A DNA stretch of 64,000 bases from a virus, in the IMG/VR virus record IMGVR_UViG_3300046168_000085, positions 1 to 64,000 of that record; one strand, written 5' to 3'. The position numbers were made by a program, and so were the translations under genes. Positions within the stretch are counted from its first letter, which is position 1; every line of letters starts with the position of its first letter. Below, piece after piece: positions 8,665 to 60,973 of the stretch. The notes under the pieces were generated by a model. It did not search any database. It was not told the origin of the DNA and was given only the letters and a program-made list of their open reading frames with translations.

Positions 8665-9207
8665 TTAAGAACTTTTTGCAGGACTTAAATTGGTAGAAAT
8701 TCTTCTGCCGGCAAATGTGAAAGGTGTGTTGGTTTTACACAACTCACCAGAATCTTGTATTACACGATCAAGTAACTCATGACCCAAATGCTTATATTGC
8801 ATTTCACGACCACGAAATTCTACTGCCACTCGCACCTGACTTCCTTTTTCAAGAAATTCACATATCTTTTTAAGTTTTGTTTGATAATCATGTTCGTCAA
8901 TTCTAGGATGAAATTTAATTTCTTTGAACTTGGATTTTTTTGACGTAGACGAACCTTGTCGTTTACTTTGCTCATATTTGTATTTACCATATTCAATAAT
9001 TTTACAAACCGGTGGTCTTGCATCTGCCACTATCTCAACTAAATCAAGACCTGCAGTTTTTGCAATAGACAATGCTTCTTGTGGAGACATAATGCCAAGC
9101 ATTTTACCATCTTCGTTAATAACCCGAATCTTAGGAATTCTTATTCTTTCATTCACCCTAGGACCGTACTCTTTTCTTTTTTTATCGTACTTTTTTTTAT
9201 TATCCAT
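8665..9207 (-). CDS. infC: Translation initiation factor IF-3
   Basis: VNERIR..IRVI, LDLVEI..ARPPVCKIIEYGKYKY, KEIKF, FRGRE. Confidence 0.97.
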   Translation of the reverse strand: MDNKKKYDKKRKEYGPRVNERIRIPKIRVINEDGKMLGIMSPQEALSIAKTAGLDLVEIVADARPPVCKIIEYGKYKYEQSKRQGSSTSKKSKFKEIKFHPRIDEHDYQTKLKKICEFLEKGSQVRVAVEFRGREMQYKHLGHELLDRVIQDSGELCKTNTPFTFAGRRISTNLSPAKSS

Positions 9208-10751: not shown

Positions 10752-12299
10752 TTAAACAACAACCGAAGAGTATCGGTCAATATCAATCGCATCAAGCATA
10801 ACTTGAATTGGATCAATTTCTTTACCACTAAGAATCGCAGTAAGAATTGCAGGTGAACAACCACTTACCATACAGGTTCCGTGGTCATCCTTTGTAACAG
10901 GTACTTGTTTACCATTTGCATTTACGTTCCAAAAGATAAGTTCTGGACATTTGAAACCTTCTGCTTCAAATTTCTTTTTGATTGTAGTGTAATTTGAATT
11001 TTCATTATTCTCACACGCACTATCAAATTCCATATCACTAACAATGTAAAGTTTCTCAGGAAGATTGTCGTTTCCGAGGTTCTTGTTTTTTGCAGTTTCA
11101 AGAATTACATCAAAAACTGCTTGAAGATTTGTGTTGTATCCCCAATCTGCTTTTTGTAAAACAGAAATTTTTTCAAGAATATTTCCGGTTGGAATTCTTT
11201 GAAGTTGTGGATGACTTGAAAATGTAAGAAATGCATTTCCAAATACAGGATCGTTATTGCGTTCTGCAATATACATTGCCAATGAAATTGCAACTTCTAT
11301 AGGTTCTATACCACCTCCACCATACATACTACCACTTGTATCACACACAACTAATCCACGATGAGGATTGTCTGATAAATAATTAGGAAGATTATTCCAC
11401 ATTGCGTTTAACGATTGAACTTCTTGTTCATTTAGTCGTTTAATTCCACCGTAATCACCAAGAAACTTTCTTACAATATCGTAAGGATACAAAGTAGAAG
11501 CATTGATTTTCTTTTTGCCACTTGCGACATCTTCAAGATACTTTCCGTATCTTGCTTCGTCATTCCGTGAAAATGCTCCACGATATTTAAGTCCTGCAAC
11601 ACTTGGAACTTTTTGATAATCAATGTCAGACCATTGCTTGGTGGTCATCTTCTTTTCAAGAACATCAATTGCAGTTCTTAGTTTAGAAAGGATTTTGCGA
11701 TATTCAGATTGTTGCAGTCCGAAAAACTTTGCGAAATACTTTCCTCGTTTCTTGGTAAGATGCGAAGAAGCATTTACACTTGGCAACCATTTTCCAAGCA
11801 ACGACACAGATGTTTCACCTTTTTCAAGTGCATTAACATCTGCATTAAATTGATTTTGAATATACTTGCTTGTATCATACCAAGACTTGGTGTTCTCAAG
11901 ACAAAACAAATCATCCCAACGACCATACTTTACTACATTATCAAGATTGCGATTAACCTTCTCAGGATGTAGATTTCCGAGTTTCTTAAAAATTACACGA
12001 AATGCTTTTCGTTCACCTTGACCACCACGAATATCACGGAAGTAAAAAAGACATTTTAATGCAAGAAGATTATCTTGAATAAATGCTTTGTGAAACAAAT
12101 CAAAAATTTTGCTATCGTCACTATACCGCATTGCACCAGCAGATGCAAAAAAGTCTAATACGGCATCAAGAGAAGTGCGATTTGAAATAGCACCATTTGC
12201 AGTATAAGCAACATTCGTTGATTTCTCAAGTTCGTTTACCAAATTGGTATTATCGTTAATGTTGCCTTCGTGACTTTCAGGTAAAATGATATTTTCCAT
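10752..12299 (-). CDS. DUF2828-family TROVE/Ro-like protein with C-terminal vWA domain
   Basis: TANGA..., LDFF, RDIRGGQGER, YGRWDDL, KWLPS, VCDTSGSM MIDAS, SDMEFD, FWNV. Confidence 0.85.
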   Translation of the reverse strand: MENIILPESHEGNINDNTNLVNELEKSTNVAYTANGAISNRTSLDAVLDFFASAGAMRYSDDSKIFDLFHKAFIQDNLLALKCLFYFRDIRGGQGERKAFRVIFKKLGNLHPEKVNRNLDNVVKYGRWDDLFCLENTKSWYDTSKYIQNQFNADVNALEKGETSVSLLGKWLPSVNASSHLTKKRGKYFAKFFGLQQSEYRKILSKLRTAIDVLEKKMTTKQWSDIDYQKVPSVAGLKYRGAFSRNDEARYGKYLEDVASGKKKINASTLYPYDIVRKFLGDYGGIKRLNEQEVQSLNAMWNNLPNYLSDNPHRGLVVCDTSGSMYGGGGIEPIEVAISLAMYIAERNNDPVFGNAFLTFSSHPQLQRIPTGNILEKISVLQKADWGYNTNLQAVFDVILETAKNKNLGNDNLPEKLYIVSDMEFDSACENNENSNYTTIKKKFEAEGFKCPELIFWNVNANGKQVPVTKDDHGTCMVSGCSPAILTAILSGKEIDPIQVMLDAIDIDRYSSVVV

Positions 12300-26830: not shown

Positions 26831-27092
26831 AATGAGATATTATTATGACAGATTTAACAAATATGTCAACTACTTTTCTTTTAAAAATTTTATGACTTTG
26901 TTTCTAAAATCCACATCATTTGCAATCCTATATTTTATTTTTTGCTCTATTAGTTTATCTTCGTGTTGAATCTTTTTCATAATTTCAATTTTTTTAGATT
27001 CTGTTTCTAATATAACAAATGTAAAAAATAGTAATTCCAAAAGTAATAAAAAGTACTGTTTGGATTGATAGAACATATTGATAATTAGTTAT

Positions 27093-28365
27093 TTATTGTT
27101 TTTTTTGAAAGTCGTATAAATTTTCTAATTTAAGAATATTGCTTAGTTCATTTAAAGCATTTCTACATTTTAATATAAACGAAGGCACAAATATGTCATC
27201 GTAAATTAAATTACCAACATAATACTTTTTAATCCATATTTTTAAATTATTATACAAATCTTCTGTAAAAACAACTCCAGTGTGAATGTTATTAAATTCA
27301 GTTTCATTCATAGATACTCTTAATCTTAAACACGCCGGACCACCTCCGTTCCATAAACTTTGCTCTAAATTTACATAACGAACCTTTCGTATATCATTTG
27401 TTTCTTCCGATGATGCTTTGTAGGTATTTGCGTACCAATGGACTTCTACGACATCGTATGGGTGCTATCAGCATATGCCCATCTTTATATTCAACTAACT
27501 GACTATTAAACAAATATGTTTCAACTGCAACATCAAGTGGTATCTCTGATTCAGTTATCCGTAGAAGATTTAGTTTCCCATTAAAAGAGTCCTGAAGTTT
27601 TGTAATAGTTTCTGCTTCCTCTGCTAATGCATTTTCGTGGTAAACGTACAAATTTTTATTTCCGACTCCAATTACATCGTGGTGAAATACACCAGCATCT
27701 ATGCTTTCCGCAGATTGTTGTGCGAATACTGCATTCTTGATTTGCATAATTTCCGCAACTTTTTTGGATGCTTCTAATGTTTGCCGTGCAGGATATTTTG
27801 ACGGAGTTTCTTCTGACGAATTATTTGAACGACCATACACAAAGAAATGTAATCCTTCTTCTTCATACGAATTGCAGAATCGTGTGTGATTGGCTGCACC
27901 TTCATCGTCCAACTCTCCATCACTATTCAAAGGAGAATGAATTAAAAATTTAGAGGTATCGTTGAAAATTTTATTTAATGTGATGTAAGTTTGAGGTGCT
28001 TCAATTCTACGATGATGTGTGAAATTCAAATTTGCAGTCAATAAATTTAACTTCCCATTCTCGGAATCTGTACTTGGTACGACAGTAGACGAATTAGCAA
28101 CCCACATACTGCTTGCAGATGAATTGATTGCCATATTATCATAATCTTCATAGTCGTTGATTAAAGGTCTTTCTTGTGGTGGTATAATTGCTTGTTTATG
28201 CCCCAAATCAAACATCAACTTCATTTTGTCTAAACCTTGCAATGCAGCTTCCCGTGGATTGCTCGGCTTGCTTTTGTTCGTTGCCGAGTGTACATTTCCG
28301 TTAGCAAGACCAGCATAATTGTGAGTTGGTCCAACCAACCCATCAAAGTTTACTTCAAACGACAT
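27093..28365 (-). CDS. astB: N-succinylarginine dihydrolase (frameshift near 27395)
   Basis: EVNFDGLVGPTHNYAGL, PPQERP, SASSMWVAN, DEGAANH, YPARQT, YLFNSQ; NGGGPACLRL read at about 27320-27350. Confidence 0.95.
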
Positions 28366-28379
28366 GGTATTATTATAGA

Positions 28380-28688
28380 TTACTTAATCTTACCAGTCAA
28401 CCATTCAAACATCATTCTCCAATCTGCCATCTTAGCATATATTGGATTGCTTGACAAAAACGCAGGCATATTACCTTCAAAAAGAAGATGACCCACAACC
28501 GCAAGTGGATAAACCACAAACGGAGTTAACAACAACCACCATAAACTAAGATTGAAAACGAACACGGATACAACAAATGCAATCGTTGCGACGTTTCCAA
28601 GCAAATGAAAAAACTTATTGATTGGTTTTGTGTGCTTACTCAGATAAAACTGATAGTATTCTTCAAAACTTTCAAACTTTTTTCCCAT
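28380..28688 (-). CDS. DUF962/Mpo1-like membrane protein
   Basis: FEEYYQFYLSKH...NKFFH.G; GHLLFEGN.PA. Confidence 0.8.
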   Translation of the reverse strand: MGKKFESFEEYYQFYLSKHTKPINKFFHLLGNVATIAFVVSVFVFNLSLWWLLLTPFVVYPLAVVGHLLFEGNMPAFLSSNPIYAKMADWRMMFEWLTGKIK

Positions 28689-28724
28689 ATCAATAAATAT
28701 GGTATATATGAGTTTTTATAATAA

Positions 28725-28967
28725 TTACTTCTTCGCAACTTCTACATCAACCGAGTGCCAAGATTTTTCACACCCAACACTTTTACAAGCCTTTTTAATT
28801 GCTTCCGCAGTTCCTCTTGCTTTTACAGTTTCGGTGTGTCCTTTTTTGATGTCAACACCATCCACTTTTGCACTTTTGGTGAATTTTACTTCCCAATTGC
28901 TGAATGCTTCATTTAAAAAGTTTTGAATTTCTTCACGGATGATTGATTGTAGTTCTGTTTTCTTCAT
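28725..28967 (-). CDS. Phage protein with MKKTELQSIIREEI..FLNE leader
   Basis: Leader of the same type as 4118-4498. Confidence 0.55.
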   Translation of the reverse strand: MKKTELQSIIREEIQNFLNEAFSNWEVKFTKSAKVDGVDIKKGHTETVKARGTAEAIKKACKSVGCEKSWHSVDVEVAKK

Positions 28968-28990
28968 AACAATATATAAGTATTATCCAC

Positions 28991-29989
28991 TTACAGAAAA
29001 TATATACGAACTTTGTCGTTAATGTTTAGTTGTAATTTTTTTATGCTTTCTGCATCTACATGGATTTCTTGATTATCCCAATATTCTGCTTTTCCACGAC
29101 AACAACGAAATGGTTCGTATGTTGCAATTAAAGTATCTTTTGGGTCTTCCACGAAATTCCCTGTTAATTTACCCACCTTGCTTCTTTTAATCGCACGAAT
29201 GTTTTCAGTTTCACACGAATAAGTTGGTCCTGCTTCAAAAATATCAATCTCTCCGTTGAACTTGAAGTTCTGTTTCTGTAACATTCCCTTTGCAGGTTCC
29301 GTATTTTTGTGGACTTTACCAAGAACATCACGAACGTGTTTCGGAAGAAGATTAACGTAAATAGGATGACTCGGCATAAGGTCTTCTATAAACTGCTTGT
29401 TTTTCATACTAAGATAATCTGCATTGGTATAATCTATCTTTAGAAAATGCTTCATACAATATTCGTAAAATGGTGAATGACCTCTTGTTGTTACAACACC
29501 ACGCATTTCTGCGATTACTTCATTTTCAAAACGATCAAGATATTCTGCAATAAAAAGAAATCGTGAATAACTCAACAACTTTCCGTTTCCTTTTCTTGCA
29601 TTTGGAAGCAGATAAAGAGTTCCAATTTCAGTAGGACCGGAATGCTTTTTATCTAAACGCAATACTTCGTTTGAAGTTTTGATTTTAAGTTCCTTATTTT
29701 CGTGGACTTCAGTATCTGTTACATATGTGTAGAAAGGTTCAAATCCACCAACTTTGCTGATGATACCGCAGATGCCTACTAACTCGTTGTTGTTTTCCAT
29801 AACAAACAAATAACTTTCACCTTCAGGAGAATCCACCGATTTCTCAAATGAATATAATGTATGCTCAAGTCGTTTTTGAAGCAGAGATTTATCGTTCTGC
29901 AAAGTTGTTATACCAGTTCCTGCTTTTTTTGCAAGTTTTTGCAGTCCACTTAAATCATTCTTATTTATCTGCCGAACGATCATAATCAA
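28991..29989 (-). CDS. astA: Arginine N-succinyltransferase
   Basis: YLFVME, VGGFEPFY, TEIGTLYL, GKLLSYSRFLF, VIAEMRG, SPFY, IDIFEAGP. Confidence 0.93.
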   Translation of the reverse strand: MIMIVRQINKNDLSGLQKLAKKAGTGITTLQNDKSLLQKRLEHTLYSFEKSVDSPEGESYLFVMENNNELVGICGIISKVGGFEPFYTYVTDTEVHENKELKIKTSNEVLRLDKKHSGPTEIGTLYLLPNARKGNGKLLSYSRFLFIAEYLDRFENEVIAEMRGVVTTRGHSPFYEYCMKHFLKIDYTNADYLSMKNKQFIEDLMPSHPIYVNLLPKHVRDVLGKVHKNTEPAKGMLQKQNFKFNGEIDIFEAGPTYSCETENIRAIKRSKVGKLTGNFVEDPKDTLIATYEPFRCCRGKAEYWDNQEIHVDAESIKKLQLNINDKVRIYFL

Positions 29990-31343
29990 ACTGAATTAAG
30001 GTATCAAGAGTAATTTTAACAACTTCATCAATATCTTTTTTACTCATTACAGGTGTCGGAAAAAGAAAACGAACCTTCGTTGGATTTTTTCCTGCAATGA
30101 ACGAAATCACTCCGTTTTTAAATAATTCGTGGACAAACTTCATTGTGACATCAGGAGACCCATCAAACACTTGAAATGCAAACATTGCACCGATACCTCC
30201 AATGTTTGAAACAAACTCAGAGTTTTTTAATCCACTTTCAAACAAATTAAAGTATTTGTGATTCTTGCCGATTTTATACAACTCAGGACCTGTTTTGCTT
30301 TTCTTGTCGTAAAACTTACCTTTAAGAATCTCTGTCAATACTACATCGGCTGCGAACAACGATGAAGTTGCTCCTGTGAAAGTTTGCGACACCAACCCTG
30401 GTCTTGGTTTGACATCTTCTTTGAAAATCGTTGCACATACTTGTGTGCTTTTTCCTACACAAACCAAATCAACATATTCATCTAATTCAAACATTTGAAA
30501 TGCGAATGGTTTATATGTTCTTGCAAAACTTTGTACTTCATCTACAAAGAAAAGTATATCGTGCTTTTTAAGACATTTTGCAATATCTTGAAGAATCTTT
30601 TTATCTCCAACATTGAATCCACCTTCTCCTTGAATAAGTTCTGCAACCATACACGAATGTTTACCAGGATGTCTTGCAATATGCTTTTCAAGATGCTTTA
30701 CTGCTGATTCTGCATTAAACGGAATATAATCAACTTTAAGTGTATCAGGTAATCCTTCACGATAATATGGTTTATCTGTGATTTGTGAAACACCTGTTGT
30801 TCTTCCGTGGAAACAATTTGCAAATGCAAGAATACGATCAGCAGGAAACTTTTTTTGAAATGCCATCTTGATTCCGTTTTCAACTGCCATTGCTCCACTT
30901 GTTGTTAAAAATACATGATCAAGTTTTGCTCCATGTAAATTTGCAACTTGTTTGAACTTTTCCATTACAACCAACGATTCTTCGTTTTGCTGAAGATTGC
31001 CTTGCATAACACAATCACTAAACGCAGAATTTAATGATGCTTCTACAATCTTCTCGTTTCCGTGTCCAAAATAATTTACACCAATTCCACCTATCATGTC
31101 GTATTTAACTGATCCATCGGTAAGTTCTACTAATGCACCATATCCTTTTCCTGTTCCGACATAAGGAAATACCAATCCACCACCACGAACATTTTTAAAT
31201 CGTTCTAGTAGTTCTTCGGTGATTTCTTTAGGTGCAGTTGGTGGTGTGTGTTTTAGTTTTTTTACGGACTTAATATATTCTTTTAATAAAATTTGTTTTG
31301 CATCATTTGTTGTTTTGTCTGTAAAAAAATCGTTGTACCACAT
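29961..31343 (-). CDS. astC: Class III PLP aminotransferase (AstC/ArgD-like)
   Basis: SGAMAVE, FHGRT, ELIQGEGG, DEVQS, VGK; ast context. Confidence 0.75.
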   Translation of the reverse strand: MWYNDFFTDKTTNDAKQILLKEYIKSVKKLKHTPPTAPKEITEELLERFKNVRGGGLVFPYVGTGKGYGALVELTDGSVKYDMIGGIGVNYFGHGNEKIVEASLNSAFSDCVMQGNLQQNEESLVVMEKFKQVANLHGAKLDHVFLTTSGAMAVENGIKMAFQKKFPADRILAFANCFHGRTTGVSQITDKPYYREGLPDTLKVDYIPFNAESAVKHLEKHIARHPGKHSCMVAELIQGEGGFNVGDKKILQDIAKCLKKHDILFFVDEVQSFARTYKPFAFQMFELDEYVDLVCVGKSTQVCATIFKEDVKPRPGLVSQTFTGATSSLFAADVVLTEILKGKFYDKKSKTGPELYKIGKNHKYFNLFESGLKNSEFVSNIGGIGAMFAFQVFDGSPDVTMKFVHELFKNGVISFIAGKNPTKVRFLFPTPVMSKKDIDEVVKITLDTLIQFDYDRSADK

Positions 31344-31347
31344 AATA

Positions 31348-32553
31348 TTACTCCTTTGTTATATTATATAAATATAACGCAGATAACTTTGTTCGTTCTT
31401 TTAACGAATCAATGAAAATCATTTCATCACGACTATGCATTCCATTTCCAACAGGACCAAGTGAATCCATATTAGGCAATCCATATCCGTTTAGTTTGTT
31501 TCCATCACTTGCTCCTCCACTCATAATCAACTTTAGTTTGTTCATTCCAAGTTGCTTCGCACATTTTTGAAGATGCTCGGTTATTTTCTTTGCTTCTTTG
31601 GTGTATGGTTTTGGAGGACTTGTAAATTTTCCGTGAAGTTCTGTACCTGGATACTTCTTACGCATATCACGATAAAAATTTTGCAGACGATGTTCAAACT
31701 CAGTTCTTTGTTTTTTGGTGACAACTCTGCAATTGAATCTGCATATTGCTAAATCAGGAACAACATTTGACGGACCACCTCCTTCTACTTTACCTAAATT
31801 GATCGTCATTCCTTCATTGATTGTCATCATAGTCTTTGACCAATTTATGAAATCAGCAACTCCGTAAAACGCATTTAATCCATCGTGAAAGCAACGGCCT
31901 GCGTGTGCAGATACTCCTCGGAATACCATTGTATAACTTCCTACTCCTTTACGTGATTTAACGATGCTTCCGTCAGGTAACGCAGGTTCATACAACAATC
32001 CAATATCATTGTTTCTTGCGGAAGTTTCTAAATAAGAAGAAGATGCAATGCTTCCAACTTCCTCATCTGGTAAAATTAATACTTCCCAACCAACTTTATT
32101 TTTAATATCACTATTTTCGTATGCAAGCAAAGCATACAACATAGTCATTAAACCACCTTTCATATCAAGTACTCCAGGACCCATCATTTTGTTTCCGTTT
32201 ATTGTAACTTTCTGAAAATCATGGTCTTTCGGATATACGGTGTCATAATGTCCACACAATAAAATTCGTGTTTCAGCAGTTTGTCGTTTACGCAAACGAA
32301 GAACTTTTCCGTGATTTAATTGTTTTATTTCTCCGTTGGAATTTATTGAATCAATTGGAGATAACTCGTATTGATTAATTTCATCTGGTTCAAGTTCTGA
32401 AAACATTTCTTGAAGTTGATCAATTGCGACATCAAGATTTTTTAAATTATAGGTATGAGTATTAAGATTTGAAAACGACTCAAGACGATCAAGCATTTCA
32501 TCAAACCTATCGTCTATTAAACTTAGGTAGTTGTTCATACCTATAAGTATCAA
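31348..32553 (-). CDS. M20-family hydrolase, probable succinylglutamate desuccinylase (AstE functional analogue)
   Basis: GHYDTV, GPGVLDMKGG, DEEVGS, YEP, AHAG, SDGN; embedded in the ast cluster. Confidence 0.75.
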   Translation of the reverse strand: MILIGMNNYLSLIDDRFDEMLDRLESFSNLNTHTYNLKNLDVAIDQLQEMFSELEPDEINQYELSPIDSINSNGEIKQLNHGKVLRLRKRQTAETRILLCGHYDTVYPKDHDFQKVTINGNKMMGPGVLDMKGGLMTMLYALLAYENSDIKNKVGWEVLILPDEEVGSIASSSYLETSARNNDIGLLYEPALPDGSIVKSRKGVGSYTMVFRGVSAHAGRCFHDGLNAFYGVADFINWSKTMMTINEGMTINLGKVEGGGPSNVVPDLAICRFNCRVVTKKQRTEFEHRLQNFYRDMRKKYPGTELHGKFTSPPKPYTKEAKKITEHLQKCAKQLGMNKLKLIMSGGASDGNKLNGYGLPNMDSLGPVGNGMHSRDEMIFIDSLKERTKLSALYLYNITKE

Positions 32554-32555
32554 AC

Positions 32556-33927
32556 TTACAGAGTAATACCAGGTAGCAGTTTGCTTGGAAGTTCAGGAAC
32601 TTCAGTAAGATGTAAGGCAGTTGGGTGGCCGCAATGTTCAATAGTTGTATAACCACTTGGACGATTGCAACCACTCCAACCCATCCCACCGAAAGGAACA
32701 ACACTTGCACAACCCGTGGTAGGACGATTCCAATTTACTATTCCCGTTTTGAGTTCTGCTTCTGCTTTCCAAAATAAATTCTTGTTCTTGGTGATGACAC
32801 CTGATACTAATCCGTACTTGGTGTCGTTTGCAATTTCTATTGCGTGTTCAAAAGTATTACTGCGAATAACTTGAAGCAACGGACCAAAATATTCTTCGTC
32901 TGGTAAATTCTTTATATCAGTAACATCAATGATACCAGGTTCAACTAATCTACTTGATGTTCCATTAATTTGTTTAAATTCTTTTAATATAGTTCCACCT
33001 AAACTTACCAAATGTTTTTGAGCATCTAAAATTCCGTTGACTGCATTCACCGAAATCATTGGTCCCATAAAGGTTCTGGAGTCATCAGTATATTCTCCGA
33101 TAACAAGTTTATCAGCTGCATCAATTAAATTACGAATTATACGATCACCTTCACACGCAGTTAATCCTTTGTTAACAATCAATCTTCGTGTACAAGTGCA
33201 TCTCTGACCAGTAGAAATAAATGCAGATTGAAGAAGAATGTTTGTAGCAGTATTAAGACCACCTGCTTCTTCAACAATTGTTGCATTGTTTCCACCCATT
33301 TCCAATGCGACAATCTTTTCTGGGATAATCACTTAATGCTTTGTAAATGCTATGACCAACTTTTGTACTTCCTGTAAAAAACACTCCGTCTAACAACGAA
33401 TTATCAATTACATCTGCTCCACTTCCTTCGCATAAAATTACCACGTCTTTTGGTATTCCTGCTTGATGTAAAAGTTCCACCATTTTTCGTCCTGTTTCAG
33501 GAGTCAATGAACTTGGTTTAAATACAACAGAATTCCCTGCGAGAAGCAAAGGAACGATGTGTCCGTTTGGAAGATGACCAGGAAAGTTGAATGGACCAAT
33601 AACTGCAAAAACACCGAATGGTTTGAATCGTGCTTGTATTCCCATATCAGCATGAACTGATCGTAACGCATTAAGACGATCATTGTAAGATTCAAATGTT
33701 ACATCAATTTTTCCGACCATTGCTCCAACTTCAGATTTGGAATCCCATAAAGGTTTTCCGTGTTCTTTTGATATGGTCTCGGCGATTATATCAGAATTTG
33801 CTTCTAATAACTTTTTGTATTTTCTAAGAATACTTTTACGATGCTGAATTGTAGTTTTTCTCCAACTATCAAATCCTAGTTTGGCACTCTTGAATTTATC
33901 ATTTATTTCGTTTTTGCTAAGTGCCAT
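32556..33927 (-). CDS. astD: Succinylglutamate-semialdehyde dehydrogenase (frameshift near 33330)
   Basis: GPFNFPGHLPNGHIVP, FTGS, ALEMGGNN, FISTGQRCTC, DEEYFGP, GIVNWNRPTTG. Confidence 0.92.
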
Positions 33928-34722
33928 TACTTATTATCCGTACTTTCAAAAATTTTATCGGCAGAACCTGCAATAAATCCGTCAAAATTATTATGACGCA
34001 ATGCAAATTCATAATAGCATCCAGGAATTTCAAATAATTGTCCCTCCTCTGAATCAAACTCAACGGATACATTTTCTGCCATAATACTTGATTGCTCTAG
34101 TCCTTGTTTAACTGAACCTTTTATTTCACCACCTGAATCATTTATTCTATATCCGTTTTCTTTCAAATATGAATTTACCTGTCCAAGATTTTCAAACGAA
34201 GAACAATCTGTGACACTTATTGTAAAATGATTAACGATAAAACCAAATGTGGCCACCCAAAGCTGCATACTCACTTTCTTCTTTTAAAAAGTCATAAGTT
34301 TCTTTTGTAATCATGCCCCACGGAGTTCCACAATTACAGAAATCAAAAGCATCTAGTTGCTCGTTGGATATTTGGTTAACTAATCTGTCAATCGTATCTT
34401 GTAATTCTTGTGAAAATTCTTCTAATCTTAGTTCACTAATAAATACCCGTGTCAAATCATCATCAGAATGTAAATAATATGTTGCATCGAGTTTCTTTTT
34501 TTCAAATGCTAAGTCTTCAACTTCTGAATATCCACTCTTTACAAAAGATTTGGCAAGAACACTACGATTAATACGTGGATGATTGAATGTTCTTAATGCA
34601 ATATGATCATTCTTTACCGAAGTTCCTTCGTGTTGCTCAATGAGTTTTTTTACTTTAACAACTTGCGGATTTACACGTGAATACATACTCCACATATCAT
34701 CAAACAATTCTCGTATATTCAT
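33927..34722 (-). CDS. DUF1338 family protein (HglS/YdcJ-related fold; frameshift near 34265)
   Basis: NDHIALRT, VFISEL, ESEYAA.W, NHFT, LEQSS, YYEFA.R. Confidence 0.85.
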
Positions 34723-34950
34723 AATAAATCTAACCTTTCATTTACCTTCTCAAGCATTTTTTCATAATTTATTCTGTTTGAACGGGTTGTCGTATCATCA
34801 CCCCACTCGATACAATCTTCAAGTTGGTCTTTTAACCATCGTAACTCTTTTTTATTAAATGGAGTGGTTATACCGTTTACTTTAAATGTTTTCTGATGGA
34901 TATCTTCTGGATTCTCCACACATTTTTTTAAAGTATTCCTCAAAGTCCAT

Positions 34951-35843: not shown

Positions 35844-36641
35844 AATATTTCCAAATTCTTTACTATCGTCTGTTCCAATGCATGGATACTGAAGTTTCCT
35901 TGTGCTTTTATTACATATGTTGCGTGACCTTTTGGGTTCATTCCCACTTCATCCCAAGTTTGCTCAACAATGTGACCAACTCGTTTTGATCCAGCAAACA
36001 CGAAAACGACTGTATCATTTATTTTATATAAATGTCGTTTAGGATAATTTTTTCGTTTACCCCTACGTTTCATTGAAACTAACACAACAATTTAATTTGG
36101 TAGGATCAAACCATCAGTTGACGGTATATCAACCACTCGTTCTTCGGGATCAGTTTTTGGTTCGTCTGCACTGAGCCTTGATATACGAGTTCTCCAGTCT
36201 GCGTCTTCTCCGTTGTATTCATCGATAATATCACGAAGATGTTCAAGGTAATCACTTGGCCAGGAATTATAGTCAACTGATGTTTCTGTAATTGGGAATG
36301 GTTGCATTGGTTTATCTGCAAATAAATCTATATCATTTTCAGTGTACATAGTGTTTGCAAAATTTTCATCTAACTTTCCGAATACATCTTCGTATCTATC
36401 TTGTAAATAATTCATTTTTTTATCATACTCATAATTTACATCAATGTAAATACTTGTTGTATTGTCCGTGCAACTTTCTGTTTCAAAATTTTCAGGTTCA
36501 TATCCAGGAGCATACTCAAGGTGAAGACCAGTTTCGTCAATAGCCCACCACTCAGTCCATTCCGGGCAAGAAAGTATCTCGTTCGGTTGGTTCATTTCAA
36601 AAATTAGATCATCCATTGTCATTTTACCTTTCTATATATAT

Positions 36642-38155: not shown

Positions 38156-39508
38156 TTAGCACTCAGTTACATTTACTGCCAATCCACCTTTACTTGTTTC
38201 TTTGTATTTGCTTTTCATATCAGCACCAGTTGCTTTCATTGTTTTTATTACGTCATCCAATGAAATTTTTGTATCGTTTTCATTAAGCATTGCCATACGA
38301 CTTGCATTAATTGCCTTTCCAACTCCAATTGCATTTCGTTCTATACATGGTATTTGTACAAGTCCTGCAACAGGATCACAAGTTAATCCTAAATTATGCT
38401 CCATAGCAATTTCGGCCGCATTTTCTACTTGCTTTAAAGTTCCTCCTACAATTTCAGTTAATGCACCGGCTGCCATACTACAAGCAACTCCCACTTCTCC
38501 TTGGCATCCTACTTCTGCACCTGATAAACTTGCATTCATTTTGTATAACATAGCAATTACTCCAGCCGTTAATAAAAACTTGATTTCCCAATCTTCTGAT
38601 TTTTCGTGGACATACTCTTTAATATACATCATTGTTGCGGGAATAATACCAGATGCTCCGTTGGTAGGAGCAGTAACAACACGATTCATAGCTGCGTTTT
38701 CTTCGTTAACCGCAATCGCACAAATGCTTGAATAATCAAGAAATGCTTGATTATCAAGTTCATTGTTTTTAAGAAAGTTTTCGTACATAATCGCAGCTCT
38801 TCGTTCTACATTTATTGTACCAGGAAGCATACCTTGAGTTGTTAATCCTCTGTCTACGCATTCTTGCATTATTCTCCATATTCTGCGTAATTCTGTTTTG
38901 GTTGTTTTTTCTTTTCTGAAACACTTTTCATTTTCCAACACCACATCAGATATTTTCAAATTACGATTTTCTGCGATAGTAAATAATTCTTCCGCACAAG
39001 AAAATTCATTGGTGAGTTTTCTTTTGGAAGTTTTAACTTTATTCTTTTTTGCGTTACTTTCTGTTACCACAAAACCACCACCAATGCTATAATACATTCT
39101 CGTAGCAACTTCTTTACTTTTTGTATAAGCATAAAACTTTATTCCATTGGGATGATACGGAAGTTTTTTCTTTTTGTTGAAAATTATATCATTCTGCGTG
39201 AATTTAATTTTACGAATGCCACCGAGTTTTATTTCTCCGTCAAGAGAATCAACTTCATTTAATTGTTGTTGTTTTACTTGATCCGGTGCATAATTCAATA
39301 AACCGAGTTGAATTGCAATCGGAGTTCCGTGACCTTCACCTGTTAATGCAAGTGAACCAAACAACTCAATTTTGATTGAATCGACTTCACCAAATACTTT
39401 TTTGTGTTTCAAAAAAGAAACAAACTTTCTTGATGCTTGGATAGGACCTGTGGTGTGTGAACTTGAAGGACCTATTCCAATTTTGAAAAAGTCAAGAACA
39501 CTATACAT
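38156..39508 (-). CDS. sdaA: L-serine dehydratase (Fe-S, single chain)
   Basis: GIGPSSSHT.GP, YYSIGGGF, VTAPTNGASG, GCQGEVG, GLTCDP, QIPCIERN, YKETSKGGLA. Confidence 0.97.
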   Translation of the reverse strand: MYSVLDFFKIGIGPSSSHTTGPIQASRKFVSFLKHKKVFGEVDSIKIELFGSLALTGEGHGTPIAIQLGLLNYAPDQVKQQQLNEVDSLDGEIKLGGIRKIKFTQNDIIFNKKKKLPYHPNGIKFYAYTKSKEVATRMYYSIGGGFVVTESNAKKNKVKTSKRKLTNEFSCAEELFTIAENRNLKISDVVLENEKCFRKEKTTKTELRRIWRIMQECVDRGLTTQGMLPGTINVERRAAIMYENFLKNNELDNQAFLDYSSICAIAVNEENAAMNRVVTAPTNGASGIIPATMMYIKEYVHEKSEDWEIKFLLTAGVIAMLYKMNASLSGAEVGCQGEVGVACSMAAGALTEIVGGTLKQVENAAEIAMEHNLGLTCDPVAGLVQIPCIERNAIGVGKAINASRMAMLNENDTKISLDDVIKTMKATGADMKSKYKETSKGGLAVNVTEC

Positions 39509-41358
39509 TATTCAAGAAACTTGAATGTACCACCTAGAATTTTCTTTGCGAAAGAATAATTCTTTTTGTCGTTATTGTTGCTCATTCCACTAAAGTTGTT
39601 TTTGATTTTGATTTTTGCTTCACTAAAAACCACATCCATCAACTCAAGATATTCAGCTGCTTTTTCAGGATCATCTTTGATCATGCTATCAATACGTAAT
39701 GCACACGCAGATATTACAAACAACTCAGTTCCAATTTCAGTCAAACGACCAAGAAGCATTTGTTGTTTGTCTAATGAAGGACCGTATCGTGCCATTGAGT
39801 GAAATAGTTTTCTGCTTAATTTCTTGCTTGTTCTTGAAACATAAAGAAGATACTTTTTGACTGCTCCATTTACTCCCGTGGGTCCTGAATTGAAAGTTGG
39901 TAACCATTGTTTTGGATACCAAGTTGCATAGTGTATTCCTGCTCCGATAGCTGCCTTTAAACGAACCATCAATGGAAGACGTGAATCAAGAACTGCTCCG
40001 GCTGCTTTAAGATGTGGATCAAGTGCTTCACGTGCCAAAAGCAAACGCATAATTTCACTTGAACCTTCAAAGATCATATTGATACGACAATCACGAAGAA
40101 ATCTTTCCACAGGAATTGGATCAGAACCACGATTGCGAAGTGAGTCAGCAGTTTCGTAACCACGACCACCACGTATTTGCATCGTTTCGTCTGCTACTTT
40201 CCATGCTTCTTCTGTTCCCCACATTTTACACATTGCAGATTCCACACGAATATCTGCTTTTTTACCATCCACTAAACTTGATGTAAAAAGAACGATACTT
40301 TCAGTTGCGAAATTCTTGGCCGCAATCTTAGCAATTTTATCACCAATTGCTTGGTGTTTACCAATAGCACATCCCCACTGTTCACGTGATGAACCCCACT
40401 CACGACAAATCTTTAAGCAACTACGCATAAGTCCCACACAAGCAGCCGGTAATGTAAGACGACCTGTATTCAATGTGCTAAGTGCAACCTTGAGTCCTTT
40501 GCCTTCTCCTGCTACCAAATTCTCCACAGGTATCTTTACATCGGTAAATCTTACAACACCATTATACAATGCTTTAAGACCCATAAAACGACATCGAGTA
40601 ACTACTTCTACACCAGGTGTATCCATATCAAGAATAAATGCCGAAATGCTTTTACGCATTTTGCCTTTAATTTCTGTATCAGGTGTTCTTGCCATTACAA
40701 TAATAACACTTGCTTTTACTCCATTTGTACACCAAAGTTTTTCTCCGTTTAAAACATAATGAGTTTTATCTTCTGATAACTCTGCGTAAACCGTCATTTG
40801 TGCAGGATCACTTCCTACAGTTTCTTCAGTCAACGCAAACGCACTAATTTCTCCTTTACCAAAACGAGGAAGATGCTTTTTCTTTTGTTCGTCTGTTCCG
40901 TAAAGTAACAATGGTTGAGGAACTCCGATACTTTGATGTGCTGATACTAACGCAGTTATATTTCCGCACACTTCACCCAACTTCATAGCCGCACGTGAAT
41001 AATTTGTTTGTGATAAACCACGACCACCATATTCCGTTGGAATTTTAATTGCGAATGCACCAATCTTTGCAAGTTCTTTAAATACTTCATCAGGAATTTC
41101 ACCTTCACGATCAATTGCGTCTGCATCTACATACTTGTCTAACACATCACCCAATTCATTCAAGAAAATATCTCCTTTTGCTTTGTCTTCTGCTTTTTGT
41201 TTCGGAAATGGATAAATCAAATCATAATTTGCTTCACCTGTAAACAAACCACCACTAAAACTTTTTGTTCCTTTTTTTCCTTTATCACGTGCAGCCTCGG
41301 CTGCTTCCAAGGCATCTGCTTTACCCTTGGACATTTTTGAAGTATCTATTTCACTCAT
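39508..41358 (-). CDS. fadE: Acyl-CoA dehydrogenase (FadE/ACAD9-like)
   Basis: AFALTE..GSD, LNGEKLWCTNG, R.QWG..IG, QIRGGRGY, IFEGSSEI. Confidence 0.93.
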   Translation of the reverse strand: MSEIDTSKMSKGKADALEAAEAARDKGKKGTKSFSGGLFTGEANYDLIYPFPKQKAEDKAKGDIFLNELGDVLDKYVDADAIDREGEIPDEVFKELAKIGAFAIKIPTEYGGRGLSQTNYSRAAMKLGEVCGNITALVSAHQSIGVPQPLLLYGTDEQKKKHLPRFGKGEISAFALTEETVGSDPAQMTVYAELSEDKTHYVLNGEKLWCTNGVKASVIIVMARTPDTEIKGKMRKSISAFILDMDTPGVEVVTRCRFMGLKALYNGVVRFTDVKIPVENLVAGEGKGLKVALSTLNTGRLTLPAACVGLMRSCLKICREWGSSREQWGCAIGKHQAIGDKIAKIAAKNFATESIVLFTSSLVDGKKADIRVESAMCKMWGTEEAWKVADETMQIRGGRGYETADSLRNRGSDPIPVERFLRDCRINMIFEGSSEIMRLLLAREALDPHLKAAGAVLDSRLPLMVRLKAAIGAGIHYATWYPKQWLPTFNSGPTGVNGAVKKYLLYVSRTSKKLSRKLFHSMARYGPSLDKQQMLLGRLTEIGTELFVISACALRIDSMIKDDPEKAAEYLELMDVVFSEAKIKIKNNFSGMSNNNDKKNYSFAKKILGGTFKFLE

Positions 41359-41360
41359 TG

Positions 41361-43451
41361 TTATTTATCCTCGTAGAATTTTTTGTTTGTTTTTGCGTAT
41401 TCAAGAAGCATATCACACGGAGTAAAGTATGCATCTTTTTTTGCTAGTTCTTGTAATTTTTGAACAACTTTTAATGCTCCTAAATTATCAAGATACGAAA
41501 TTGGTCCTCCACGAAATGGAGCCCATCCAGTTCCCATTATCATTCCAAAGTCTACATCCTTTGGACTATTTACAACTTCTTCTTGTAAACAACGAACTGC
41601 TTCGTTAACCATAATTAAAATTAAACGATCAACAATTTCTTCATCTGCAATTTCTTGATTTATATAAGCAGATTGGATTGCTGATGTAGGTAACTTAGAA
41701 CTTACACCTGTTGATTTTCCATTTGTATATTTGTAAAATCCACGACCACTTTTTTTACCTACATCTTTGTTGTCGATCATTAACTTCAAAAACTCTGATT
41801 TAGGAAAATTAGTTTCAAGACGATTCAGCAGATCATCTGCGACGTGTTGACATACATCCCCTCCTACTTCATCAATTAAACGAAACGGTCCCATTGGCAT
41901 TCCAAACTTACGCAACAACTTATCGACTCGTTCAATGTCTGCACCACACGAAACCATATAAACTGCTTCAATCAAATATGGCATAAGAATTCTATTAACA
42001 AGAAATCCAGGTGAATCTTTTACCACCACAGGAAGTTTACCTGTCTTTTTAACAAACTGAGTTGCTTTTAAAACGGTTTCCTCGGAGGTACATTCTCCAC
42101 GAACCACTTCCACTAATTTCATTTTGTGAACAGGATTAAAATAATGTATTCCGACCACTCGTTCTTTATGTTGCATTTTTTCTGCGACATCTACAATACT
42201 AAGTGCTGATGTGTTTGTTGCAAGAATTGTATCATCACGAACAAGTGTTTCAAGTTCCGCAAATAAATCCTGCTTGATTTCAAGTTGCTCAATCGCAGCT
42301 TCTACTACTAAATCAACACTTTTCATTGGCATAGATTCGGTGATAGGTGTAACATTATCAAACTTACTTGATGCTTCTGCTTTAGTCATCACTCGTTTGC
42401 TTACAGCTGCTGAGTACAATTTACTTATGCTTGCAATTCCTTTTGCTACAAACTCTGGTTTAATATCCTTGAGCAATACTTTGATTCCTCTTGAACTAAT
42501 CCATTGTGCAATACCTGCACCCATCACTCCTGCTCCTATAACCGCAGTATTTTTTACTTTAAAGTCTTTGTCACTTTTTGTTTTCTTGCTTCGTTCTTGT
42601 AAAAAGAATATGTTCACCAAATTGTTTGCTACATCTGAAGTAAGAAGTTCTGCAAATGCTTTTTGTTCAAGTTTAAGTGATTCTTCACGACTTACACCAA
42701 GACCTTTCACCATAACATCAATTGCTTTCAACGGAGCAGGATAAACGCCACCTGTTGTTTTAATAACATTTTTGGTTGCTTTGCTTTTTGCGATATACTT
42801 CAACGGAAAACGATTTAATAAATGAGACTTGTATTTCTTTTTTCCATTTAGTAACATTGCTTTTGCAGATGCTTCCAAATTTTCTTTGTATACCGCACGA
42901 TCAATCATTCCAAGTTTAAGTGCCAACTTTGGAACAACCACTTTACCTGCTAGAATAATTCCCATTGCTCCAGGTAACCCAATCATTCTTGGTAAACGAG
43001 TTGATCCACCCCAAGCAGGAAGAATTCCAAGCATCGTTTCTGGTAAACCAATTTTAGTTGCTGAATCTAATGTTGCAACACGATGATCACACGCAAGTGC
43101 AAGTTCATATCCACCACCCAAACACGCACCGTGAATTGCAGCCACAGTTACACACGACAAATCCTCAATACGATCAAATGTATGCTGACCAAGTTTTACT
43201 AAATAAGAAATTCTTTCAGGTGTAGGATCATCTGCGAATGATTTCAAATCCGCACCTGCGATGAATATACTTGGTTTAGCACTTTGAAATACCACTCCTT
43301 TGATCGTCTTACTGCTATCTTCTATAAAATCAAGATGATCATTTAATTCTGCAAACATATTTTCATCAAACACGTTAGCAATTGAATTTTCTTGATCAAA
43401 TGTTATTGTAACAACATCATTTAATTGTTCTAGTTTAATTGACTTGCTCAT
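41361..43451 (-). CDS. fadJ: Fatty-acid oxidation complex alpha subunit (enoyl-CoA hydratase/3-hydroxyacyl-CoA dehydrogenase)
   Basis: FIAGAD, CLGGGYELALAC, GLPE..LG..P, GAGVMGAGIA, ATNTS, HYFNP, PGFLVNR. Confidence 0.95.
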   Translation of the reverse strand: MSKSIKLEQLNDVVTITFDQENSIANVFDENMFAELNDHLDFIEDSSKTIKGVVFQSAKPSIFIAGADLKSFADDPTPERISYLVKLGQHTFDRIEDLSCVTVAAIHGACLGGGYELALACDHRVATLDSATKIGLPETMLGILPAWGGSTRLPRMIGLPGAMGIILAGKVVVPKLALKLGMIDRAVYKENLEASAKAMLLNGKKKYKSHLLNRFPLKYIAKSKATKNVIKTTGGVYPAPLKAIDVMVKGLGVSREESLKLEQKAFAELLTSDVANNLVNIFFLQERSKKTKSDKDFKVKNTAVIGAGVMGAGIAQWISSRGIKVLLKDIKPEFVAKGIASISKLYSAAVSKRVMTKAEASSKFDNVTPITESMPMKSVDLVVEAAIEQLEIKQDLFAELETLVRDDTILATNTSALSIVDVAEKMQHKERVVGIHYFNPVHKMKLVEVVRGECTSEETVLKATQFVKKTGKLPVVVKDSPGFLVNRILMPYLIEAVYMVSCGADIERVDKLLRKFGMPMGPFRLIDEVGGDVCQHVADDLLNRLETNFPKSEFLKLMIDNKDVGKKSGRGFYKYTNGKSTGVSSKLPTSAIQSAYINQEIADEEIVDRLILIMVNEAVRCLQEEVVNSPKDVDFGMIMGTGWAPFRGGPISYLDNLGALKVVQKLQELAKKDAYFTPCDMLLEYAKTNKKFYEDK

Positions 43452-43452
43452 T

Positions 43453-44700
43453 TTATTCTCTTTCCAAAATTATTGCACCACCTTGGCCACCACCAATACA
43501 AAGTGAAATTAATGCTCGTTTACCACCACGACGTTCAAGTTCCTTCAAAGTTGTAAGTGCAATACGTGAACCACTTGAACCAACTGGATGACCAAGAGCA
43601 ATTGCTCCTCCATTGACATTCAATTTGGCAAAATCAACTTCACCCAAGTTTGTGGTTTTTTTCAGTTGCTTGCAAACCGCAAGAACTTGGGCAGCGAATG
43701 CTTCGTTGATTTCAATTAAATCAAAGTCATCAAGTTTATATCCAGTTTCTTCGCATACTTTCTGAATCGCATAAACTGGTCCTAATCCCATTCTTTCAGG
43801 GATCACATCCTGCATATGCGTATGCGGAAATTCTACCCAATGGATTCCAATTGTTTTGCTTAACTGCATTTCATCTGCAATCAACAATGACACTGCTCCG
43901 TCTGTAATTTGCGATGCGTTGCCCGCAGTTACAGTTCCTTGTTTGCGATCAAATACAGGTTTAAGTTTTTCCAACGCACCCATACTTTGCTCACCACGAA
44001 TTCCATTGTCTGCATCAACGAATGTTCCGTCTGCGAAATAAAATGGGGAAATCTCAGATGACATTTTTTCTATTGCCACAAATGCTTTCAAATGAGATTC
44101 TAATGCAAACTTATCTTGATGATATCGTGTTACTCCACTTTCTCTTGCGATCAATTCAGCAGTTTCACCCATATTCATTCCAACCGTGATATCACTCAAT
44201 CCTAATCGTAAACTGATTATAGGTGCGAAGTCTTTTGGACGGAAACTCAATATCGTATGAAGACGATCACGAAATGTTCTACACTTACTTAACTTGGTAA
44301 ATTTATCAACTGCACTTGAACGATATAAAAATGGTGCTTGTGTCATATTCTCCGTTCCCCCACTTAAATAAACACTTCCACGATCAGCATTAATTTTATC
44401 AGATGCTTGTGTAATTGATTCAAAACCACTTGCACAATTACGATGAACCGTATAAGCAGGAACACTCTTGGGTACTCCCGATTTAAGTGAAATTACACGT
44501 GTGATGTTTGCGGTGTCTGCTGGTTGACATACACAACCCATTACACTTTCGTCAATTACATCGGGATTCAAATCCATCTTTGCAAACAATGCTTTTGTTG
44601 CAGAAACTCCGAGGTCTGCAGCTGATGTTTTAGCAAAGGTCGTACCCATTTTACAAAAAGGAGTCCGAGTACCATCTACAAGATATACATTTTTTTTCAT
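43453..44700 (-). CDS. fadI: 3-ketoacyl-CoA thiolase (short internal compensated frameshift)
   Basis: RNCASG, TAGNASQITDGA, NEAFA, GHPVG.SG, SLCIGGGQG. Confidence 0.93.
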   Translation of the reverse strand: MKKNVYLVDGTRTPFCKMGTTFAKTSAADLGVSATKALFAKMDLNPDVIDESVMGCVCQPADTANITRVISLKSGVPKSVPAYTVHRNCASGFESITQASDKINADRGSVYLSGGTENMTQAPFLYRSSAVDKFTKLSKCRTFRDRLHTILSFRPKDFAPIISLRLGLSDITVGMNMGETAELIARESGVTRYHQDKFALESHLKAFVAIEKMSSEISPFYFADGTFVDADNGIRGEQSMGALEKLKPVFDRKQGTVTAGNASQITDGAVSLLIADEMQLSKTIGIHWVEFPHTHMQDVIPERMGLGPVYAIQKVCEETGYKLDDFDLIEINEAFAAQVLAVCKQLKKTTNLGEVDFAKLNVNGGAIALGHPVGSSGSRIALTTLKELERRGGKRALISLCIGGGQGGAIILERE

Positions 44701-44994: not shown

Positions 44995-46069
44995 CTATTT
45001 CAAATTGTTTGCTGTGTGTTTGCTTCTGCCATTTCTAAATCCAAGTTTATTTAACTCTTCAAGCAACACATCTGAAATTTCAATTCCGTTTTTATGAACA
45101 TCAATAGATGTATTATATTCAGTTTCTCCTGGAACTAAAACTTCTTCACCTCGTTTACTTTTGCTTGATTTTATTTCACGCATCACATCACCAACATTTT
45201 TTTTGAAATCTTTAAGTCCGCAAAGTTTTCTGGATCAATGCAAATAAAGAAATGACCAATATCATAATTTGGATTTTTGTATTTCCTTCATACAAGTCCA
45301 CTTAGTTTGCTCATATAAGCACCACTTTGAAATGCCGAACACATAAGTTCTATTGCAATACTTAAACCAGAACCTTTGTGTCCTCCATCTGGTGTCAACG
45401 CCGCAATTCCTTGTTTTAACCAACGCAATGATCTTTCAAATGTTAGATTTTGATTTTCAGAAACTATCGCACAATTAGGAACATAGTTGTCTGGTGTTTT
45501 TCTTGCCATTACTTCCAAATCACCTCTTTGATAAACTGATGTTGCACAATCAATACTAAACGGATATTTTTCATCAGATGGAAATGCTATTGCGTATGGA
45601 TTCGTACCCATCTTTGGTTCTACTCACCATGAGGAGCAACCGCAGGTCGTGCGTTTGTAAAACTCATTCCCACTAAATTATGCTGAGTTGCATAACGACT
45701 ATAATAACTTGCAATTCCGTAATGTGAGGAATTTCTAACCGCAACACAACTAATTCCATGTTCTTGAGTTTTTGCAATTGCTTGGTTCATTGCATACTTG
45801 CCAACGATTTGTCCAAGTGCATTGTGACCATCAATAGTTACACAGGCTTTGTTGTCACGAACAATCTCGGGAGTTGCATTTACATCGATTACACCATCTT
45901 GAATTCGTTTTATATAATAACTAAGTCTGCTTAATCCGTGTGATTTAAATCCAAGTTCGTCAGCACTTAATAATACATCAGCACATACACTTGAATATTT
46001 GCTTGGTACTTTGTTTTTTTCAAATACCCACTTCGCAAACGCAATTGCATCTTTAAGTTTTATTTTCAC
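44995..46069 (-). CDS. Ldh_2 family (malate/L-lactate/sulfolactate/ureidoglycolate dehydrogenase-like) oxidoreductase, frameshifted into three ORFs
   Basis: SHGLSRL, NSSHYG, GTNP.A, GGHKGSGL, VPGE.E. Confidence 0.85.
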
Positions 46070-46481
46070 TTTGCTCTTTCGATTTTCTAATTTCACGTGC
46101 TTTTCTGATTTTCCTACGCATATACGGTTTCAGAAAATAATGACCAATGAATCCCTTGATAGTTGGTTTACCCACTTGCACTCTTAGTTTATTTTCATAA
46201 CGAGTCATTGGACAATCTAATACTCTTGAAAAGGAAATTAATATAATAAACGAACACAAAGGCAAACATACATACCACGGAAATCCAAACGGTGTTAAAC
46301 CCTGAAATGCAAGAATGAAAAATGCACTAAAGTTACCAATTACAACCACCCAATGCAATAGAACTACAATCAGTAGTTTAAGATGCCTTAAAGGATTGGT
46401 TGGCAAAAATCTAAGAAACCGTTTTTCGTCAGAAGGTTCTGTTATGTTTTCATCGTTCTCCATATAGAATAAATATAAAAA

Positions 46482-59793: not shown

Positions 59794-59797
59794 AATA

Positions 59798-60953: not shown

Positions 60954-60973
60954 AATGATGTATCCCTTGACTA

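Follow-up and report, generated by a model that had tools for sequence, protein, structure and literature searches.

A probable variant arginine succinyltransferase pathway encoded by uncultured large marine phages

The canonical arginine succinyltransferase (AST) pathway is that of astCADBE in Escherichia coli and aruCFGDBE in Pseudomonas aeruginosa. Here we describe a related module of eight genes, located in a window of 64,000 nucleotides (bases 1-64000 of the 80,388-bp IMG/VR virus record IMGVR_UViG_3300046168_000085). Our reading, which we consider probable, is that this module is a genuine, long-established auxiliary metabolic operon of uncultured, cosmopolitan, large marine phages with contractile tails, and that it encodes a variant AST pathway. 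When compared with the E. coli proteins, the phage AstA, AstB and AstD were 37%, 45% and 41% identical, respectively; AstB retained the Cys, His and EGAANH motifs, and the overall chemistry predicted for the two pathways is alike. In contrast, the phage lacks AstE and has an M20 hydrolase instead, its aminotransferase is not an orthologue of AstC, and it has an additional gene of the DUF1338 family. The gene order also differs, being DUF1338-D-M20-aminotransferase-A-...-B in the phage, with two phage-specific small genes between A and B; AstB and AstD are shorter (422 versus 447 and 456 versus 492 amino acids, aa), as a first-pass annotation made from the sequence alone had noted; and the cluster is viral.

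A closer counterpart was found in cellular genomes, in the form of a variant AST cluster whose usual order is M20-aminotransferase-AstA-AstD-AstB, sometimes with DUF1338, and for which we found no formal description in the literature searched. The phage module and this cluster share six families at 34-51% identity, and both are without AstE. They differ in arrangement, since the phage genes for DUF1338 and AstD are upstream of M20 and the one for AstB is set apart from AstA, and the phage version is AT-rich, carries the extra small genes, sits on a long stem in the AstA tree and has no identifiable donor.

Phage metabolic genes are usually single enzymes easing one bottleneck. Like the auxiliary metabolic genes of other phages, for example those of marine jumbo phages (PMC9123017), the genes described here are cell-derived, lie among phage genes, and are conserved and selected; unlike them, they make up a multi-step route of amino-acid catabolism. 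AST genes are not mentioned in the main text of that survey (PMC9123017), and full-text literature searches, with most subscription journals outside their scope, returned no paper on AST genes in viruses. Among 50,697 deposited phage records, AstA and AstB occurred only in 'Acinetobacter phage MD-2021a' (L112, CAKLQH020000003.1). We rejected this record as an AST phage: it is multi-contig bacterial DNA in which astCADBE stands beside gdhA and lysP, and aprE is present too. A blastn comparison of the module with deposited phages gave just one match, of 71 nt, in the same mislabeled record, and PHROGs held no family for AstA, AstB or DUF1338. The earlier statement that a full AST pathway had not been described in a phage thus agrees with the deposited phages and the literature that we searched. 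What makes the module of interest is that selection has maintained in a virus six or more linked genes for a whole route of amino-acid catabolism, and that they turn up in seawater sampled by many different studies. With a functional pathway, arginine in an infected cell would be turned, under the control of the virus, into glutamate and succinate, with NADH produced and ammonium set free; such activity would be relevant to the part that viruses play in nitrogen flow where the ocean is poor in nutrients. Being compact and diverged, the set of proteins is also suited to testing a little-studied AST variant, having M20 for AstE, a distant aminotransferase for AstC, and a DUF1338 companion.

Genes and predicted enzymes of the module

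The module occupies positions 27093-34722 of the window, on the minus strand, and consists of eight co-oriented, tightly packed genes with intergenic spacing ranging from a 29-nt overlap to 36 nt. Gene order, co-orientation and the abutting arrangement, as first annotated, were all borne out by the list of open reading frames (ORFs) and by Pfam. ORFs of any length in the window lie on the minus strand only, and the GC content of the module (0.34-0.355) falls inside the range of the window (0.29-0.376), in keeping with the earlier remark that its composition looks like that of its surroundings. The genes for DUF1338 (HGLS), AstD and AstB are each split into two ORFs in this record, a matter to which we return below; NCBIfam scores were taken on proteins of an intact relative.

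Three of the enzymes were recognized by family-specific models. AstA, arginine N-succinyltransferase (28991..29989, minus strand), is an unbroken protein of 332 aa with a Pfam AstA match (PF04958, E 1e-110). It scored 322 bits with TIGR03243, above the cut-off of 284, but 324 bits with the equivalog model TIGR03244, below its cut-off of 391, and it matched 1YLE. AstB, N-succinylarginine dihydrolase (27093..28365, minus strand; 422 aa if intact), has Pfam AstB matches on both ORF pieces, scored 525 bits with NF009789 (cut-off 452), and aligned over residues 2-421, end to end, with E. coli AstB 1YNF. The AstD-like succinylglutamate-semialdehyde dehydrogenase (32556..33927, minus strand; 456 aa if intact) has Pfam Aldedh matches on both pieces and scored 535 bits with NF006992, above the cut-off of 514; with the equivalog TIGR03240 it scored 529 bits, below that model's 579.

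The M20 metallohydrolase (31348..32553, minus strand; Pfam M20 and M20_dimer) is of the PRK07338 type, scoring 415 bits with NF005602/PRK07338 against a cut-off of 357, a model annotated just as 'hydrolase', and its metal-ligand positions align with those of carboxypeptidase G2. No match to E. coli AstE, which has the AstE_AspA fold, was found in the 80-kb record, and the M20 hydrolase stands in the cluster instead. The M20 protein is presumed to be an N-succinylglutamate desuccinylase replacing AstE. Similarly, the divergent class-III aminotransferase, which depends on pyridoxal phosphate (PLP), is presumed to act in the role of AstC; it is 460 aa long (29961..31343, minus strand; Pfam Aminotran_3) and has a Lys that aligns with the PLP lysine of 6WOP. 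With profile searches, which the first-pass annotation had proposed as a check, AstA, AstB, AstD and M20 were thus placed above NCBIfam cut-offs, but the aminotransferase was not.

The remaining three genes are the DUF1338 gene and the two small ones. The DUF1338/HGLS-like gene (33927..34722, minus strand; 264 aa if intact) has an Fe(II) oxygenase fold, with Pfam PF07063 on both ORF pieces. The best solved relative of its product was 3LHO, which is uncharacterized (E 1e-69), followed by HglS 6W1K. The protein retains the His/His/Glu metal triad and the Arg that has been tied to 2-oxoadipate binding in this family (PMC7286885). Between AstA and AstB lie an 80-aa ORF (28725..28967, minus strand), whose translation begins MKKTELQSIIREEI... 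and contains 'IIREEI', and the gene for an Mpo1-like/DUF962 small membrane protein of 102 aa (28380..28688, minus strand; Pfam PF06127, E 2e-24). The 80-aa ORF is conserved in relatives and had no Pfam or PHROG match, so that the label 'phage-type leader' given to it earlier could not be verified.

We propose that these enzymes would act in the following order. AstA would join arginine and succinyl-CoA to form succinylarginine, and AstB would remove the guanidino group as two NH3 and CO2, leaving succinylornithine. The aminotransferase would then use succinylornithine and 2-oxoglutarate to yield succinylglutamate semialdehyde and glutamate; AstD would oxidize the semialdehyde to succinylglutamate with production of NADH; and the M20 hydrolase, in AstE's stead, would release glutamate and succinate. 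Regularly found with clusters of this type, the DUF1338 enzyme may carry out some side reaction. The family-specific models argue for the first, second and fourth steps, while conserved linkage and the absence of AstC and AstE orthologues point to the third and fifth; taken together, the sequences suggest that the whole pathway, from arginine to glutamate, is probably functional. During infection, it would draw on the arginine pool of the host to supply virus production in nutrient-poor seawater with ammonium, glutamate, succinate and reducing power.

Viral setting, relatives and origin

The module is surrounded by phage genes. Replication genes lie on both sides of it (single-stranded DNA-binding protein, methyltransferases, ribonucleotide reductase (RNR), RecA and exonuclease), the window as a whole containing RNR, RecA, a 5'-3' exonuclease, a gp32-like single-stranded DNA-binding protein, a helicase and several DNA methyltransferases. 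In the other 16 kb of the record we found a fragment of a family-A polymerase, a tape-measure-like protein, a T4-type baseplate hub, a gp19-type tail tube and a tail sheath. Of the structural genes to which the first-pass annotation had looked for confirmation, those for the tail were therefore found; terminase family PF03237 was not seen in the 80-kb record, which is uninformative because the record is about half complete. The closest tail sheath (39% identity) and PrkA (49%) in deposited phages came from uncultured huge phages. A second IMG/VR contig, G006 (57.6 kb, 22% complete), shares with the window the gene at 36092-36622 (84% identity) and has in addition an unbroken 901-aa sheath that is 63% identical. 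The junctions of the module, on both sides, recur in at least six independent assemblies. It is well supported by these results that the module sits in a viral genome and not at a chimeric boundary. The genome sizes implied by CheckV were about 160 kb for this record and about 260 kb for G006.

When 5.8 billion proteins were searched, the relatives of AstA formed a tight group at 71-98% identity, with nothing further above 48%. A metagenome scan of JGI, Tara and ENA assemblies yielded 29 marine loci with the module or part of it, on contigs reaching 192 and 374 kb, and the segment of the window from 24.0 to 39.6 kb was collinear with these relatives at 68-97% nucleotide identity. Syntenic clusters, for which a search of IMG/VR had been suggested, were therefore present in metagenomes; scans of IMG/VR with AstA, as a single sequence and as an alignment, gave no further viral contig. 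We do not read this null result as absence, because the relative that shares the flanking gene ends just before the module. The parent contigs of L004 and L025 measure 374,324 bp and 191,787 bp. The former comes very close to twice 187 kb and could be either a genome of roughly 187 kb assembled twice over, head to tail, an idea suggested only by this coincidence of numbers, or a genome that is truly larger.

In the 12 contigs that we tabulated, each module gene spanned whole was one intact ORF, and the gene order was kept. The products were 264 aa for DUF1338 (264-293 aa when counted from the first start codon), 452-456 aa for AstD, 395-421 aa for M20, 447-469 aa for the aminotransferase, 330-332 aa for AstA and 422 aa for AstB. 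Ratios of nonsynonymous to synonymous substitution rates (dN/dS), calculated pairwise among seven relatives with synonymous divergence often saturated, were 0.08-0.14 for the six enzyme genes, 0.21 for the 80-aa ORF and 0.08 for the DUF962 gene, values indicating that the module genes are under purifying selection within the phage lineage. Part of the stretch was contained in 20 public seawater runs with 20 study codes, six of them RNA libraries. Contigs from a seawater metatranscriptome run covered 27.5-34.0 kb, a weak hint of expression given that DNA carry-over is possible.

Some relatives carry extra genes, which fall in three insertion hot spots, namely the junctions of the aminotransferase with M20 and with AstA and the junction of AstA with DUF962; the cargo at these sites varies, comprising a 150-aa Nudix gene resembling GDP-mannose mannosyl hydrolase and uncharacterized ORFs of 164-454 aa. 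Insert genes lie at L025:11036-12400, L020:6308-7393, L003:11265-11717, L016:9386-9994, L005:693-1457 and 2883-3548, and L006:7894-8436. Homologues of the 80-aa ORF in relatives were 54-88% identical. The DUF962 protein was 94-99% identical in most relatives (76-77% in L003 and L005) and stayed at 94-99% even where its neighbors fell to 62-75% (L018 and L020); the median synonymous divergence of its gene was 0.34, versus 0.4-1.3 for the neighbors. This pattern suggests either recent exchange of the small gene or constraint at the nucleotide level.

To place the module relative to cells, we scanned one genome for each of 185,579 bacterial and archaeal species and kept the best 80 AstA loci, a sample biased toward the best pattern matches. 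Their AstA proteins were 40-48% identical to that of the phage, no scanned genome exceeding 48%, and most belonged to Planctomycetota, Fibrobacterota or Thermodesulfobacteriota and a few to Nitrospinota, Myxococcota, Omnitrophota or Latescibacterota. The phage proteins had homologues within 10 kb of astA as follows: the aminotransferase in 60 of the 80 loci, AstD in 58, M20 in 42, AstB in 36 and DUF1338 in 13. The aminotransferase homologue (41-50% identity) was directly upstream of astA in all 60 of its loci, and the M20 homologue adjoined astA in its 42; homologues of the DUF962 gene or the 80-aa ORF were found in none of the 80. None of the 80 loci, nor the phage record, contained AstE (PF04952); five genomes of this kind, including two complete chromosomes, also lacked it in a search for which the E. 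coli control was positive. The association of M20 hydrolases with ast clusters lacking AstE, noted in the first-pass annotation, is thus matched by these cellular loci, and in the phage module too the six families are clustered and AstE is absent.

In a tree of AstA, with E. coli and Acinetobacter as the outgroup, the ten phage sequences formed one clade with support of 100 and a stem of 1.57 changes per site. This clade fell inside the variant-cluster group, and its sister was not resolved. Its nested position on a long stem, together with the shared gene set, leads us to conclude that the AstE-less cluster was acquired once, long ago, and then rearranged; because the sample of cellular loci was biased toward the best pattern matches, no donor can be named. 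The earlier suggestion of a long-resident viral module agrees with these observations, namely a monophyletic clade on a long stem, AstA identities of 71-98% with synteny kept, and dN/dS of about 0.1.

Alternative readings and quality of the record

Several observations weigh against a working AST operon in a phage. The best NCBIfam match of the aminotransferase was argD TIGR00707, at 150 bits far below the cut-off of 410, and with only 26% identity to E. coli AstC the protein was identified as neither AstC nor ArgD. Because of this low identity and a score below every NCBIfam cut-off, its proposed substrate is drawn solely from the gene neighborhood, and that of M20 is deduced from the absence of AstE. 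The textbook pathway does not include DUF1338, the 80-aa ORF or the DUF962 gene. Scans for promoters and terminators gave site counts at chance level; because promoter-like sites were no commoner than chance, it is the tight gene spacing by itself that suggests a single operon. We infer all enzyme activities, the timing of the operon and its physiological purpose. In addition, IMG/VR labels the record a 'provirus' with 51% CheckV completeness, three of the eight module genes have a broken frame in it, and the break in AstB coincides with a boundary in similarity.

The first group of these observations could be explained if the enzymes were real and viral but used another guanidino or amino substrate, stopped at succinylornithine or ornithine for polyamines, or belonged to a modification pathway, with the divergent aminotransferase, M20 and DUF1338 acting on non-AST substrates. 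The remoteness of the aminotransferase from AstC and ArgD fits this explanation, as does M20, which is closest to carboxypeptidase G2 and DapE-type deacylases and has no defined substrate. Characterized relatives of DUF1338 use 2-oxoadipate (PMC7286885), which is not an AST intermediate, and relatives keep both the DUF962 gene and the 80-aa ORF inside the module. However, AstA, AstB and AstD exceed family-specific cut-offs; the six families co-occur across many cellular phyla, for which one pathway is the simplest reading; and AstD would be left without a substrate unless an aminotransferase supplied the semialdehyde. We therefore regard another substrate or endpoint as unlikely, though it is the strongest of the competing explanations.

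The out-of-frame genes raise the question of decay. Alignment with intact relatives showed that HGLS/DUF1338, AstD and AstB are each divided by a single 1-nt insertion, at about 34261 in DUF1338 (TT to TTT), at about 33324 in AstD (CC to CCC), and at about 27393 in AstB, with the frame break at about 27393-27397. If these frameshifts were real, the pathway would be dead in this genome, although not in its relatives. Three 1-nt insertions in three of eight genes would fit such decay, as would the 3' third of AstB past the break, which is a divergent allele. We compared the stretch with contigs from three seawater DNA runs and one RNA run (X1, X2, X3 and X6), parts left uncovered carrying no information (27000-27260 in X1, X2 and X6, and 34047-34800 in X6). 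The extra AstD base (33322) was missing from the contigs of X1, X3 and X6 and the extra DUF1338 base (34259) from those of X1, X2 and X3, and two of these contigs were otherwise identical to the window over the whole aligned span.

AstB behaved differently. At 27397 the contigs of X2 and X3, which match the window exactly upstream, diverged from it, and below about 27420 the identity of the window to its relatives dropped from about 85-95% to about 55-70%. It follows that the AstB break lies on the boundary of a mosaic or a mis-join, and the change in sequence at about 27393-27420 is either a recombination joint or a mis-join of strains in assembly. Because the frame break coincides with this boundary, AstB in this record may be an assembly artifact. 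The possibility raised at the outset, that the frameshifts are real and inactivating, is accordingly made unlikely for AstD and HGLS, and for AstB it comes down to the nature of this boundary.

The rest of the record pointed the same way. At least eight genes are split in the 80 kb, so that its sequence quality must be considered poor. Besides those of the module, they include the RNR large subunit (overlapping ORFs, window 50125-52283, minus strand), SpoVR, an Ldh_2-family gene, a DnaB-like helicase and the tail sheath (overlapping ORFs, L001:15936-17304, minus strand), the last being a single 901-aa open frame in G006. Since essential genes such as RNR, the sheath and the helicase are affected too, error-prone sequence explains the splits across the record better than decay does. 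Moreover, every catalytic motif was kept in the window's own pieces: EMGG and GQRCTC in AstD; EGAANH, GVFHHD and GGGPAC in AstB, with the frame open across GGGPACLRLRV; and HIALR, NHFT and YEF in DUF1338. The first-pass claim that the motifs are intact once single indels are corrected was therefore upheld. We conclude that the three module frameshifts are errors or private lesions of this assembly and not a feature of the lineage, and we consider a decaying module quite improbable.

That the stretch is cellular, as host DNA beside a prophage or through a mis-join of bacterial and phage contigs, is in our opinion very improbable: the 'provirus' label and the typically cellular metabolic genes in and near the module would fit, but the label may be an effect of the many cell-like genes in the record, and this explanation is opposed by phage genes of like strand and composition on both sides, identical junctions in the independent assemblies, tail genes on the contig, the lack of any scanned species genome with AstA above 48% identity, the monophyly of the phage AstA clade, and an independent viral contig that joins a flanking gene to the tail sheath. 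The same junctions and tail genes argue against the concern, raised with the first annotation, that the contig might be cellular or chimeric at the module boundaries.

Neighboring metabolic genes

The supply of nitrogen, carbon and reducing power that we propose for the AST module would fit the character of several genes near it. At window positions 38156-44700 on the minus strand, genes for serine dehydratase (alpha and beta domains), acyl-CoA dehydrogenase, a FadB-like enoyl-CoA hydratase/3-hydroxyacyl-CoA dehydrogenase and thiolase lie head to tail, and a PrkA/DUF444 (YeaH)/SpoVR trio is found at 58368-63079, also on the minus strand. A wider reading, which we offer only tentatively and hold with less than even confidence, is that a working arginine-to-glutamate pathway forms part of a virus-encoded starvation metabolism, together with serine dehydratase, beta-oxidation and PrkA/YeaH/SpoVR, by which hosts starved for nitrogen and energy would be refueled from their own amino-acid and lipid stores.

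Acyl-CoA dehydrogenase, the FadB-like enzyme and thiolase amount to a full beta-oxidation set in the same phage, and relatives have the serine dehydratase as well, with 79-95% identity. A further frameshift of this record divides SpoVR into two ORFs, at 59287-59793 and 58368-59306. The PrkA most similar to that of the window among phages belongs to an uncultured 595-kb phage (49% identity), while those of Thermus phages are about 32% identical. A gene of the malate/L-lactate dehydrogenase family (Ldh_2) is present in pieces at 45288-46096 on the minus strand; the family includes enzymes that reduce cyclic imino acids during the breakdown of lysine and proline. Two further genes on the minus strand matched PHROG families, one at 8665-9207 being a homologue of a PHROG 'translation initiation factor' (phrog_9787, E 3e-42) and the other, at 10752-12299, encoding a TROVE/DUF2828-vWA protein (phrog_850, E 9e-145).

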